Origin: a virus
Lineage: Duplodnaviria; Heunggongvirae; Uroviricota; Caudoviricetes
DNA: 6,281 nt
Reading direction: 5' to 3' (one strand)
IMG/VR virus record: IMGVR_UViG_2541047777_000002
Both the position numbers and the translations under genes were made by a program. The notes below the pieces were generated by a model, which saw nothing but the letters and a program-made list of their open reading frames with translations, was not told the origin of the DNA and did not search any database. Position 1 is the first letter of the stretch. The number at the start of each line of letters is the position of its first letter. Positions 2,532 to 6,281 of the stretch are shown piece by piece.

Positions 2532-2592
2532 TGGCCTTTGATTAACGATCAACTTCTGATCACTCGTTCAAGCAAACTATAAAAACACCTGT

Positions 2593-2612
2593 CCCCGTGA
2601 CTGGTCACGGGG
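2593..2612. repeat. perfect 20-bp palindrome CCCCGTGAC-TG-GTCACGGGG
   Basis: Seen: 9-bp arms around a 2-bp centre, 62 nt after the stop of the upstream cassette and about 20 nt before a candidate -35 box. Flanked by GTTTTTAT on the minus-strand side; only a weak T-rich tract on the plus side. Function (terminator, operator or partition-type site) is not decidable from sequence. Confidence 0.5.
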
Positions 2613-2632
2613 TAAAATGTCTTTGCAAATTA

Positions 2633-2662
2633 TTGACGTGTGCGTCGTTTTGACGGTAAAGT
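2633..2662 (+). promoter_or_regulatory. candidate sigma70 promoter for the anti-immunity operon (TTGACG - 18 nt - TAAAGT)
   Basis: Seen: TTGACG at 2633-2638 and TAAAGT at 2657-2662. The -10 match is weak (4/6) and there is a second TTGACG at 2650-2655. Inference only. Confidence 0.25.
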
Positions 2663-2691
2663 TACTCCGCTGCGGCAAATTCCGCAGCCGG

Positions 2692-2715
2692 GCGTGAGAA
2701 CCCGGATAAACGAAG
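2692..2715 (+). promoter_or_regulatory. upstream copy of antisense-RNA target sites (a1 GTGAGAA 2694-2700; b1 AAACGAAG 2708-2715)
   Basis: Seen: both elements are exact reverse complements of two single-stranded segments of the downstream RNA (TTCTCAC 2828-2834; CTTCGTTT 2813-2820). The 10-mer GCGTGAGAAC (2692-2701) recurs at 2862-2871. Knowledge: phage P1 immI has a1/b1 upstream and a2/b2 downstream of c4. Confidence 0.5.
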
Positions 2716-2720
2716 CGCAC

Positions 2721-2743
2721 AACACGCGCCAGCGTGTTTTTTT
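2721..2743 (+). terminator. intrinsic-terminator-like hairpin (AACACGC-GCCA-GCGTGTT) followed by a T run
   Basis: Seen: 7-bp stem with 4-nt loop; seven consecutive T at 2737-2743, of which the first two pair in the stem. Lies between the a1/b1 elements and the structured RNA. The stem is short, so efficiency is uncertain. Confidence 0.5.
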
Positions 2744-2772
2744 GTGTGTATATACCTGCGCATATCCGATTT

Positions 2773-2855
2773 ATGGTGGCTCAGGCGGGGCTGACTTCGG
2801 TCAGGCCGGTTTCTTCGTTTGCCGGTATTCTCACCCCCGCTTGGGCTACCACCAT
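2773..2855 (+). ncRNA. c4: c4-type antisense (repressor) RNA of an immI-like anti-immunity locus; ends approximate
   Basis: Seen: 7-bp closing helix (ATGGTGG 2773-2779 with CCACCAT 2849-2855); inner helix GCGGGG 2785-2790 with CCCCGC 2835-2840; hairpin CTGAC-TTCG-GTCAG (2791-2804); hairpin CCGG(T)/(G)CCGG (2806-2825) whose loop carries CTTCGTTT; unpaired TATTCTCAC (2826-2834). Both single-stranded segments are complementary to short elements upstream and downstream. GC-rich, with no convincing ORF. Knowledge: this matches P1/P7 c4 and N15 CA RNA. Confidence 0.65.
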
Positions 2856-2861
2856 TCAAGA

Positions 2862-2901
2862 GCGTGAGAACTCTGGTGGTAGCACGACCAATTAAACGGA
2901 G
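2862..2901 (+). promoter_or_regulatory. downstream antisense target sites (a2 GTGAGAA 2864-2870; b2 AAACGGAG 2894-2901, overlapping the SD of the Icd-like ORF)
   Basis: Seen: a2 is identical to a1; b2 pairs with the RNA loop CUUCGUUU using one G-U wobble and contains GGAG 8 nt upstream of ATG 2910. Inference: pairing would occlude the ribosome-binding site. Confidence 0.6.
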
Positions 2902-2909
2902 TGCATACC

Positions 2910-3074
2910 ATGTTCAAATTCAAATTTGCGGCAGTCGTTCGCACAGACAAAAAGTCACACATCCATCATCTTTCCACCATCGCGTCATCTGAACGGGAAG
3001 CTCGTCGCCAGTTCGCCAGCCGGTTTGTCCTGGTATTGTCTGCCCGTATTCCGGTGCGCGAGGTGGCTGCATGA
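2910..3074 (+). CDS. icd: Icd-like small protein (putative cell-division inhibitor), 54 aa; not in the supplied ORF track
   Basis: Seen: ATG 2910 with GGAG 8 nt upstream; translation MFKFKFAAVVRTDKKSHIHHLSTIASSEREARRQFASRFVLVLSARIPVREVAA; stop TGA 3072-3074 overlaps ATG 3071 of the next ORF. Knowledge (from memory, not searched): resembles Icd-like proteins that follow c4 in P1-type immI loci. Confidence 0.6.
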   Translation: MFKFKFAAVVRTDKKSHIHHLSTIASSEREARRQFASRFVLVLSARIPVREVAA

Positions 3075-3304
3075 ATCAGGTAAAAATGAACACTGTTGGC
3101 CTGCTGGAATCGTTGGATGAACGTCTGGCTCAGGTCTATGCGCTCGTATCATCAGCCCATCGGACAGTCTCCAGCTGTGAGGCGTCGATTTATCTCTCAG
3201 AAGCAGGGAAACTCCTTCAAATTGCGTGTGAGTTAACACACGAAGCACAGGGATATTCAGCATCGCTCTCGTCGCAATTGCTGCACGGTAAGGAGGCTGA
3301 ATGA
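3071..3304 (+). CDS. hypothetical protein, 77 aa, within the antirepressor operon
   Basis: Seen: ATG 3071 with GAGGTGG (3060-3066) 4 nt upstream; ATGA overlap with the previous stop and with the next start at 3301. No recognised domain. Confidence 0.6.
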   Translation: MNQVKMNTVGLLESLDERLAQVYALVSSAHRTVSSCEASIYLSEAGKLLQIACELTHEAQGYSASLSSQLLHGKEAE

Positions 3305-4074
3305 GCGCGTTAGCAGTCTTTTCCTTTCAGGAAGAGCATCAGGTACGTGTAGTGATGATTAACGGCGATCCGTGGTTTGTGGCGAATGATATTTGCAATG
3401 CTTTAAGCATCCAGAATGTCACACAAGCTATCGCTCGATTAGATGAAGATGAGCGATCTATGTTTAACATAGGCCGTCAAGGTCAAGCCAATATCATCAG
3501 TGAATCAGGTCTTTACACGCTCATTCTCCGCTGCCGTGACGCTGTAAAACAGGGCACGACCGCGTGGCGTTTTCGTAAATGGGTAACGAACGAGGTCTTG
3601 CCCTCTATTCGCAAGAATGGAGAGTACGTTTACGTCGAGCCTGAGCCAATGCGAGCAGCAGAGCCGTTGAACTGGAGGCAGAAGGAGTATCTGCGAGGGC
3701 TGATTAACGATATTGCACAAAGTTTTCAATACCGAAATGCCTGGATTAGTGGTGTATGGTTGGCTTTGCGTCGGGCGTGTCGTAATCCATCCCCGAACCC
3801 CATAACGGTTGATGATTTGCCAGCAATTACGGCAGAACTGCGCCGGATTTTGACGGCTGCTGAGTCGGCATTGGGGAACATGCGCACGTATGAACGAGAG
3901 TTGTTGCGTGATGTTGTTCGTGGGGGTAGGCGGAGTATGTCGTGTGGTGATTTGCCCATCACCGATATTAACTCTGATCTGGAAAAGGCGTTACCCGCGC
4001 ATTTTGAACTGGCAGTTCAAAAACTTGAGCAGTTATCCGCGCAGCTAAAGCCAGCAGAAATCACCAATAAATAG
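3301..4074 (+). CDS. ant: phage antirepressor with N-terminal Bro-N-type domain, 257 aa
   Basis: Seen: ATG 3301 with strong SD TAAGGAGG (3289-3296). N-terminus FSFQEEHQVRVVMINGDPWFVANDICNALSI...GLYTLILRCR...FRKWVTNEVLPSIRKNGEY matches the Bro-N / antirepressor pattern (FxF, DGxxWFva-Dva, GlY-li, VLPxiRk-G) as recalled. Gene order (antisense RNA, icd-like, ant) supports the call. Confidence 0.8.
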   Translation: MSALAVFSFQEEHQVRVVMINGDPWFVANDICNALSIQNVTQAIARLDEDERSMFNIGRQGQANIISESGLYTLILRCRDAVKQGTTAWRFRKWVTNEVLPSIRKNGEYVYVEPEPMRAAEPLNWRQKEYLRGLINDIAQSFQYRNAWISGVWLALRRACRNPSPNPITVDDLPAITAELRRILTAAESALGNMRTYERELLRDVVRGGRRSMSCGDLPITDINSDLEKALPAHFELAVQKLEQLSAQLKPAEITNK

Positions 4075-4212
4075 GGTTGACCAGCCCGAATTTATGCCCT
4101 TCTTAGAGAAGGGAAGCCTCGCAGTCGGGGCGGTGATGTCTGTGGTTGCAGCCGCGTTTCCTCCGTTACTTCTGCCCTTTGCAGGGGGCAGGCGAGGTAG
4201 GTCACACAACAA

Positions 4213-4235
4213 GGCACCGTTAATTCGGTGCCTTT
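4213..4235. terminator. candidate bidirectional terminator between convergent ant and telN (GGCACCG-TTAATT-CGGTGCC)
   Basis: Seen: 7-bp stem with 6-nt loop. Followed on the plus strand by TTTACTGTATGCTTT; on the minus strand by TTGTTGTGTG. Lies 13 nt beyond the telN stop and 139 nt beyond the ant stop. Both U-tracts are imperfect. Confidence 0.4.
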
Positions 4236-6135: not shown

Positions 6136-6147
6136 CTTTCCTCTCCT

Positions 6148-6167
6148 GATTATCCGCTCGGATTATC
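6148..6167. repeat. direct repeat GATTATC-N6-GATTATC 13-32 bp upstream of the telN start codon
   Basis: Seen: two identical 7-mers with a 13-bp period, between the telN SD and the AACACAAT repeats. On the telN-sense strand they read GATAATC, so they could be -10-like boxes or a regulator site. Inference. Confidence 0.3.
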
Positions 6168-6169
6168 GT

Positions 6170-6267
6170 AACACAATTTGAGAATAAGATAACTAATAAC
6201 GCGTTAACTTAGGCACAAACTAACAGAACACAATAACGGATAATAAATAAAAACACAATATCAGAAC
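6170..6267. repeat. three copies of AACACAAT (6170-6177, 6227-6234, 6252-6259), CAGAAC at 6224-6229 and 6262-6267, and a 10-bp palindrome TAACGCGTTA (6197-6206)
   Basis: Seen: the repeated motifs as listed. Knowledge (from memory, unverified): the N15 telRL arms contain CAGCACACAAT-like repeats bound by TelN; here 6224-6234 reads CAGAACACAAT. Inference: TelN-binding repeats flanking a telomere site that lies past the window end. Confidence 0.35.
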
Positions 6268-6281
6268 GTTAAAATTTGTTC

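Follow-up and report, generated by a model that had tools for sequence, protein, structure and literature searches.

A conserved helix that excludes the closing stem of a C4-type antisense RNA in an N15-like phage-plasmid

Introduction

Among the founding examples of bacterial antisense control are the C4, CI and CA RNAs, on which the silence of P1, P4, N15 and many enterobacterial prophages depends. These RNAs are cut from the same transcript that carries their target, and to our knowledge there is as yet no structural explanation of how a single molecule can serve both as the source of a repressor and as the message for an antirepressor. For N15, Ravin, Svarchevsky and Deho reportedly described in 1999 an immA locus in which the CA RNA controls icd-antA-antB. 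Here we analyse a 6,281-nucleotide stretch of DNA from a tailed phage (IMG/VR record IMGVR_UViG_2541047777_000002, Caudoviricetes; "the window" denotes this whole stretch), which carries a C4-type locus. Our subject is a pair of nine-base segments, X at the 3' end of the C4 RNA and X' in the leader of the downstream icd gene, which can join in a hairpin at the expense of the C4 closing stem. Such a hairpin had been proposed from the letters of the window alone (hereafter the original prediction). We show that X and X' are complementary, that this complementarity is conserved and maintained by covariation, and that the resulting fold and the C4 fold are mutually exclusive.

Results

The window carries a C4-type immunity locus

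The window belongs to an N15-like linear phage-plasmid (telomere phage). Its minus strand encodes a 629-amino-acid open reading frame (ORF) with all four protelomerase domains, and region 2540-3080 shares 93% identity with Escherichia phage PhiR46_1 and 81% with the "cA / secondary immunity" region of N15. This region is a textbook C4/CI/CA antisense-RNA immunity locus, in which an isrK/a1b1 module, a terminator, C4, the targets a2 and b2, icd and ant follow one another. Plus-strand Rfam matches comprise c4-a1b1 at 2656-2708, an isrK-type RNA with its terminator at 2669-2742, and a full-length C4 at 2769-2856.

The upstream target module (isrK/c4-a1b1; plus strand, 2656-2745; RF01394, 68.1 bits, and RF03163, 48.8 bits) provides the upstream a1/b1 copy of the C4 targets that is characteristic of C4 systems. 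It consists of a hairpin at 2669-2688, the a1 hairpin at 2689-2706 (with a1, GUGAGAA, at 2694-2700) and b1 (UAAACGAAG, 2707-2715), followed by an intrinsic terminator detected by a terminator scan (2721-2738 plus a U run); N15 is annotated with a rho-independent terminator at the equivalent position. A sigma-70-like promoter recognised by consensus match (TTGACG, 18-nucleotide spacer, TAAAGT; plus strand, 2633-2662) would place a transcription start near 2669, which is the 5' end of the isrK-like RNA and of the Rfam isrK match. Between terminator and C4, at 2748-2766, lies a TATATA-like -10 element (GTGTATATAC) that was not called by the consensus scan. As a candidate second promoter, this element could yield C4 precursors with a short leader; we take the N15 promoter Pb to be comparable.

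The C4-type antisense RNA itself (plus strand, 2775-2854, within the Rfam match 2769-2856) aligns with RF01695 over its full length (1-87) at 82.2 bits, against a gathering score of 45 (E = 1.3e-15), and its minimum free energy (MFE) fold reaches -47.9 kcal/mol (z -6.2). It comprises a closing stem of 16 bp (2775-2790/2835-2850), hairpin 1 (2791-2804), hairpin 2 (2805-2826) with b' (CUUCGUUUG, 2813-2821) in its loop, the junction segment a' (UUCUCAC, 2828-2834) and the tail ACCA (2851-2854). The first pair, G2775-C2850, and the A-C-C-A tail are tRNA-like features. By analogy with characterised family members, C4 would be excised from a longer transcript and receive its 5' end from RNase P, a process for which the window offers these tRNA-like features only. 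With the Rfam C4 consensus as query, blastn against phages returned SfV as the sole match.

Downstream of C4, an icd-like ORF of 54 amino acids (plus strand, 2910-3074; 94% identical to its N15 homologue, and annotated as Icd in phiKO2 and PY54) opens the antirepressor operon, which continues with an antA-like ORF (3071-3304) and an antB-like ORF (3301-4074) with a Bro-N domain (Pfam, 9e-21), both on the plus strand and identified through the Icd/AntA/AntB annotation of phiKO2. The Icd-like protein belongs to no Pfam family; its sole match, LtuB, falls below threshold (18 bits against a cut-off of 25) and is probably spurious. As in other C4 loci, a' and b' are complementary to downstream a2 and b2 segments that overlap the ribosome-binding site of the ORF at 2910, and C4 would control the icd/antirepressor operon in the window. 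In every feature that can be judged from sequence it is an ordinary C4 locus, new to the family.

The register of the closing stem

Homologues were collected from IMG/VR with a pattern that described the C4 core only and excluded X and X', as a guard against selection bias, and 86 distinct C4 loci were aligned with MAFFT (alignment A1, to which the counts of cells, pairs and sequences given below refer unless another set is named). X was anchored by the 5' strand and the RCC tail; X' was anchored independently, at 4 nucleotides after the a2 site predicted from a'. In this alignment the 16 pairs of the closing stem are 99.4% paired, and 11 of them show compensatory changes. The Rfam alignment, the MFE fold and covariation agree on a register that runs from G2775-C2850 through C2780-G2845 to G2790-C2835 and leaves A2851-C-C-A as the tail; column 7 with column 80, for example, reads UA in 67 sequences, UG in 12 and CG in 7. 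The closing helix of the original prediction (ATGGTGG, 2773-2779, with CCACCAT, 2849-2855) was off by 3 nucleotides. The outer 5' strand of the stem, W (GGUGGC, plus strand, 2775-2780), is the rival of X' for X. The W/X helix (alignment columns 5-10 with 77-82) is 100% paired, with compensatory changes in four of its six pairs.

In one contig of the collection (L032, IMGVR_UViG_2571042784_000001), an extra C4 copy is followed by none of a2, X' and b2 and looks like an orphan C4 gene that has no target beside it. The sequence downstream of this copy resembles window positions ~2560-2610, upstream of the immunity locus, and the hairpin sequence found at 2581-2624 in the window, described at the end of this text, also follows it.

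An alternative hairpin shares a strand with the closing stem

As the original prediction had stated, GCTACCACC (2845-2853) and GGTGGTAGC (2875-2883) are exact reverse complements, with GTGAGAA (a2, 2864-2870) between them. If A2854-U2874 is counted, the inverted repeat extends to 10 bp of 100% complementarity (2845-2854/2874-2883, 19 nucleotides between the arms), and the window contains just two other perfect inverted repeats of hairpin type with at least 9 nucleotides. Taken alone, 2845-2883 folds with -17.6 kcal/mol (z = -5.0), and 0 of 200 dinucleotide shuffles fold as well. On the plus-strand RNA the 5' arm is X (GCUACCACC, 2845-2853), made up of the final six nucleotides of the C4 3' strand followed by the discriminator A2851 and two tail bases, C2852-C2853, and the 3' arm is X' (GGUGGUAGC, 2875-2883). 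Because both helices use the same strand (2845-2850), X:X' excludes W:X; the overlap between hairpin arm and closing helix that had been proposed holds in either register of the stem.

The a2 target had been placed in a 21-nucleotide loop. GTGAGAA does lie inside this loop, but a conserved nested mini-stem had been missed: AGAG (2859-2862) pairs with CUCU (2871-2874), and a2 really sits in the 8-nucleotide loop (CGUGAGAA) of a mini-hairpin at 2859-2874 on the plus strand. This mini-hairpin mirrors the a1 hairpin, CCGGG-CGUGAGAA-CCCGG. In the homologue alignment its three inner pairs covary, and a'/a2 is 97% paired with compensatory changes in seven of seven pairs. Further downstream, b2 (AAACGGAG, plus strand, 2894-2901) includes GGAG (2898-2901), the Shine-Dalgarno sequence of icd. 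This b2 segment is complementary to the loop sequence b', and in the alignment of telomere phages the two covary.

X' also has a second conserved partner downstream, which was absent from the original prediction and turns the exchange of two strands into a three-way competition. In the window this partner is X'' (GUGCAUACCAU, plus strand, 2901-2911), which pairs with 2876-2885 in the MFE fold. The X'/X'' helix spans the A and the U of the icd start codon and leaves b2 with the Shine-Dalgarno sequence in its loop; in one relative (L056), a compensatory change from C-G to U-A in this helix was read by eye.

Three other readings of the repeat were rejected. An intrinsic terminator at X/X' is not detected at 2845-2890 by the terminator scan, and the sequence after 2883 is ACGACCAAUUAAAC. 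A complex of the kind formed by RNase P external guides would leave the tail A2851-C2852-C2853 free, but this tail itself pairs with U2877-G2876-G2875, and these pairs are conserved. Finally, one MFE structure contains a shifted register, ACCAUU (2851-2856) with GGUGGU (2875-2880), which was discarded because the bases after ACC are not conserved in relatives. This register would spare the whole C4 stem yet mask the CCA tail.

X' tracks X across homologues

That the pairing goes beyond chance is seen from the comparison of homologues and not from the window alone. X and X' are paired in 95.3% of cells, compared with 85.3 +/- 0.7% in shuffles (0/500), changes on both sides occur in 98 cells versus 31 in shuffles (0/500), and controls in which the segments were slid against each other are 18-49% paired. 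Double, compensatory changes are found in six of the nine pairs. The 26 distinct (X, X') haplotypes form 8.15 Watson-Crick pairs with their cognate partners and 6.39 when permuted (0/20000).

Might X' merely follow the C4 stem, of which X is a part? The pair A2851-U2877 is exchanged for G-C in 11 sequences while U2774 is invariant, and because A2851 is unpaired in the C4 fold, this covariation lies beyond the reach of the stem. Where a C in X has changed to U, X' compensates (U-A in 10 sequences), whereas W does not (G.U in 11). Overall, Watson-Crick pairs join X to X' in 90% of cells and to W in 76%. Together, these observations imply that X' tracks X itself and is no passenger of the C4 stem. 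Internal mismatches between X and X' are nearly all of the G.U type (40 cells versus 2 others), which points to selection at the level of RNA on the plus strand.

The pairing also recurs in distant branches of the family. RNAalifold, applied to 54 P4-like leaders with W left out of the input, predicts X/X' together with the mini-stem. In nearly all homologues X' stands 4 nucleotides after a2; after the upstream target a1 we found no X'-like element, the best complement of X scoring 5.0/9 there compared with 8.79/9 after a2. X and X' are both conserved among 12 telomere phages, where phiKO2 shows two compensatory pairs (GUCACCACC/GGUGGUGAU) and Aeromonas phage ARM81ld one exchange of A-U for G-C. 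P1, a distant member, has CCUGCCACC/GGUAGCAGG with eight of nine pairs, two of them compensatory relative to the window, and its X ends at the annotated 3' end of mature C4. In P4, GCUAUCGCC and GGCGAUAGC take the places of X and X'.

The mutual exclusivity claimed by the original prediction is borne out in this comparison: W/X and X/X' share an arm, and across the 86 homologues each helix is kept by compensatory changes, as expected for a switch. The C4 closing stem and X/X' both appear to be under selection.

Two single viral contigs (L089 and L101) each carry two C4 loci, which differ in a'/a2 specificity but are identical or similar in X/X'.

The two folds are close in predicted energy

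We call the fold with W:X fold A and the fold with X:X' fold B, and express their difference as ddG(B-A), the free energy of fold B minus that of fold A obtained by constrained folding. A comparison of -47.9 with -17.6 kcal/mol would make the hairpin appear negligible. We reject this comparison, since the exchange is confined to the outer 6 bp of the C4 stem, and the constrained difference is 1-3 kcal/mol. The two folds are close in energy because these 6 bp give way to 9 bp. At the stage where the transcript of the window extends as far as X', ddG(B-A) amounts to +1.6 kcal/mol (P about 0.15); the value is +2.9 kcal/mol when the start codon has been made and +5.7 to +7.5 kcal/mol after removal of the leader by RNase P. 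For the nascent precursors of 68 relatives the value is +1.0 +/- 2.3 kcal/mol, with 43% below zero. Judged by these predicted energies, the folds are near enough to interconvert or to be chosen kinetically.

The predicted balance depends on how the transcript begins and how far it has grown. In 59 relatives, the probability of X/X' at the point where X' is just complete is 0.98 in long RNAs (59/59 loci) versus 0.42 in RNAs with a short leader, and once the start codon has been made it is 0.27 and 0.03, respectively. It is the inclusion of a1/b1 that moves the probability from 0.42 to 0.98, in a model that is unable to represent kissing of a1/b1 to an intact C4. The MFE structure of window positions 2669-2930 includes X/X', and in the predicted MFE structure of the RNA that starts at 2669 and reads through the terminator, a1/b1 pairs with a'/b' in cis in a composite helix of 24 bp (2689-2715 with 2813-2839). 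This composite helix opens the C4 fold and thus leaves X to pair with X'.

When only the leader is considered, X' is paired downstream with a probability of 0.84, compared with 0.52 when the downstream sequence is shuffled (63/65 loci). Its partner is X'' over the icd AUG in the window and a local hairpin next to b2 in P4-like loci. X'' was rejected as the main covarying partner of X' throughout the family, as it is confined to N15-like phages and the start region of P4-like loci does not follow X'.

What would the change of fold expose? In the window, the predicted unpaired probability rises from fold A to fold B for a2 (0.43-0.63 to 0.87), for the Shine-Dalgarno sequence (0.27 to 0.56) and for the AUG (0.13 to 0.46). 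The idea that the alternative hairpin presents a2 agrees with these values and with the position of a2 at the tip of the hairpin. The coupling of RNA processing to target accessibility that had been suggested along with it is a conceivable consequence.

Discussion

We propose that X/X' is a conserved alternative helix which acts in cis and, before the RNA is processed, competes with the fold that serves as RNase P substrate, a reading to which we assign a probability of roughly 0.55. How might such a helix act? In the primary transcript, X' and W (2775-2780) would be rivals for X and the ACC tail. Fold A, with W paired to X, would create an RNase P-type substrate from which mature C4 RNA is produced, while X' would pair downstream, in the window with 2901-2911 over the icd start codon. 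In fold B, pairing of X with X' would sequester the acceptor-like end of C4 together with its tail, show a2 at the tip of an extended hairpin and withdraw X' from the icd initiation region. By homology to the 3' end of P1 C4, X is part of the mature RNA, so that the hairpin, as the original prediction had implied, would exist only in unprocessed RNA and fold B would be possible only before 3' processing. By prediction, nascent RNA favours fold B, above all in long read-through transcripts in which a1/b1 pairs with a'/b' in cis and opens the C4 fold. We infer that fold B forms in vivo and that transcripts are thereby partitioned into repressor RNA and translatable antirepressor mRNA.

A more far-reaching version of this scheme, which we put forward tentatively and consider doubtful as a whole, is that of a self-partitioning transcript. 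Here the 5' context, namely which promoter has fired and whether a1/b1 is present and free, would select co-transcriptionally between two outcomes: a C4 precursor, giving repressor RNA with the icd start closed, or a transcript with a1b1:a'b' and X/X', giving no C4, a displayed a2 and an open icd start. Under this scheme X' would act as pivot in a three-way helix competition common to P1, P4, N15 and many prophage relatives, and the balance between repressor and antirepressor would be set at the level of RNA folding.

Several points weigh against a competing cis helix. The order of transcription lets W pair with X before X' exists. At equilibrium, fold A wins in a short precursor that extends past the start codon, with a probability of X/X' of 0.01 in the window and 0.03 in the family. 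The preference of long transcripts for fold B is biased, as a pseudoknot-free model cannot hold an intact C4 that kisses a1/b1. Family-wide, the accessibility of the Shine-Dalgarno sequence and of the AUG does not differ significantly between folds A and B (p = 0.08 and 0.16); attenuator-style opening of the ribosome-binding site was accordingly rejected as a property of the family, and we claim no general translational switch. The sequences in A1 are related, and the shuffle statistics overstate their independence. Finally, covariation alone cannot tell pairing in cis from pairing in trans.

This last point leads to the main rival, in which X' is a third target site of mature C4. The ACC(A) tail would use GGU (2875-2877) as a toehold, invade the outer 6 bp of the stem and add an intermolecular helix of 9 bp to a'/a2 and b'/b2. 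A contact in trans predicts the same covariation as the cis model, and it fits well with a complementarity that stops at precisely the 3' end annotated for mature P1 C4 and with the position of X' at 4 nucleotides from a2 in nearly all loci. Moreover, X' is a better Watson-Crick partner of X than W is, so that strand exchange would not be uphill base for base. However, the upstream targets a1/b1 are without an X'-like element, and when X/X' is imposed on mature C4 and the processed leader, RNAcofold predicts a penalty of +7.0 kcal/mol compared with the two monomers kept apart. From geometry, we would also expect that with a'/a2 formed on the same C4 the linker of 4 nucleotides between a2 and X' must span the 10-bp inner stem and both helices, a distance presumably beyond its reach. 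We therefore regard a contact in trans as unlikely.

Alternatively, X/X' might have no part in a switch and represent a transient 3' structure of terminated or cleaved precursors, which stalls 3'-to-5' exonucleases and thereby protects or defines the 3' end of C4. PNPase is involved in the maturation of P4 CI RNA. The coincidence of the X boundary with the annotated mature 3' end in P1 is what a processing aid would lead one to expect, as is the stability of the hairpin on its own. The 16-bp closing stem by itself presents exonucleases with a strong obstacle at that position, though, and a conserved downstream partner of X' would be left unexplained; a role restricted to processing thus seems rather improbable to us.

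Still less probable is that X' is conserved only for its downstream pairing with X'' or Y, or for some other reason, and that its match to X is without function. The high probability of downstream pairing in the predicted leader-only ensemble, well above that of shuffles, and the near invariance of X' among close N15 relatives are compatible with such a by-product. On the other hand, X and X' change together at no fewer than six of nine positions over the 26 haplotypes, including A2851, which has no other known partner, and by inspection the sequence around the start codon does not change along with X' in the GCTATCGCC/GGCGATAGC class. It is very improbable that the arms are half-sites for a dimeric DNA-binding protein. 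A perfect inverted repeat of 10 bp around a 19-bp spacer would suit a symmetric operator, as would concerted half-site changes, but mismatches that are nearly all G.U on the plus strand are those expected of RNA pairing, and the spacer varies in length from 12 to 21 nucleotides.

P1 c4, P4 CI and N15 CA have been summarised as structurally similar RNA immunity systems (PMC3632133, PMC4825925), and it is instructive to compare the window with each of them. The closest is N15 immA, which has the same gene order, the DNA identity of 81% over the region, an annotated terminator upstream of the RNA and identical X and X'. Yet the window is nearer to PhiR46_1 (93%), and its a'/a2 pair reads UUCUCAC/GUGAGAA in place of UUGAGAA/UUCUCAA in N15. 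The immI locus of P1 and P7 (c4, targets a1 b1 and a2 b2, icd-ant) shares the order a1 b1, C4, a2 b2, icd, with a C4 annotated at 77 nucleotides, and in P1, too, a2 lies in the loop between X (CCTGCCACC) and X' (GGTAGCAGG). In contrast to the window, P1 has no intrinsic terminator or isrK match between b1 and C4 (Rfam finds c4-a1b1 only), its loop measures 12 nucleotides, the helix contains one C.A mismatch, and X' has its other partner in a local hairpin that overlaps b2 and not the start codon. In the P4 immunity system (CI RNA, seqA, seqC), Rfam finds both C4 and isrK, and CI is processed from an untranslated leader (PMC4825925, PMC3632133); P4 also belongs to the GCTATCGCC/GGCGATAGC covariation class. 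Here, however, the output is described as premature termination of transcription and not as a translational block, and the spacer between isrK and CI is ~108 nucleotides longer.

Two alternative cis structures have been demonstrated experimentally in the Gifsy-1 isrK-orf45-anrP locus, where native gels and compensatory mutants support displacement of the C4-like fold by an a1:a' helix formed in cis (PMC4825925). The locus contains homologous isrK and C4-like (STnc1160) elements, its cis helix b-I, between the a1 and a' regions, competes with local folds and sets translation, and the same composite a1/a' helix is predicted in the window. The helices studied there do not include X/X', however; the C4-like region is treated as a coding ORF (orf45), and the RNAs end near the C4 3' end (PMC4825925). 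A more formal resemblance exists to attenuators of the trp type, in that W, X, X' and X''/Y are four consecutive segments in which W:X corresponds to 1:2, X:X' to 2:3 and X':X'' to 3:4, and in that W:X and X':X'' are compatible with each other while both exclude X:X'. The C4 locus differs from these attenuators in showing no evident leader peptide or ribosome stalling, in a 3:4 element that is no intrinsic terminator (it has no U tract), and in that one of its folds is itself a processed regulatory RNA.

The X/X' helix lies beyond the Rfam C4 model, which stops at the C4 tail. In the literature on C4-type systems accessible to us we met with no account of X/X', the 1990s primary papers on P1 c4, P4 CI and N15 CA being outside our reach. 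Apparently, then, X/X' is an undescribed, additional conserved switching helix in a classical phage immunity system. A helix that excludes the RNase P-substrate fold would be a concrete and testable element, consisting of nine bases with known compensatory partners, and it may also explain why an IsrK- or seqA-like upstream element is needed in lysogeny. Even if X/X' were only an aid to processing or a contact in trans, it would add a defined feature to a family model that ends at the C4 3' end.

Additional features of the window

Upstream of the immunity promoter, an ORF of 103 amino acids (2220-2531) has an N-terminus resembling a signal peptide (KSFILVLCFAFSAAVYAQ); it has no Pfam match, and its PhiR46_1 homologue is annotated as a Spackle exclusion protein. 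Between this ORF and the promoter stands a strong hairpin, CCCCGTGAC-TG-GTCACGGGG (2593-2612, within region 2581-2624), with an A-rich left and a T-rich right flank, which has the look of a bidirectional terminator. A perfect 9-bp hairpin (AAGGCACCG/CGGTGCCTT, 4211-4234) separates the convergent antB-like and protelomerase genes and is probably a terminator shared by both. In the AT-rich DNA upstream of the protelomerase gene (region 6136-6281), ACACAAT occurs three times (near 6171, 6228 and 6253), and these copies could be regulatory or telomere-proximal repeats.

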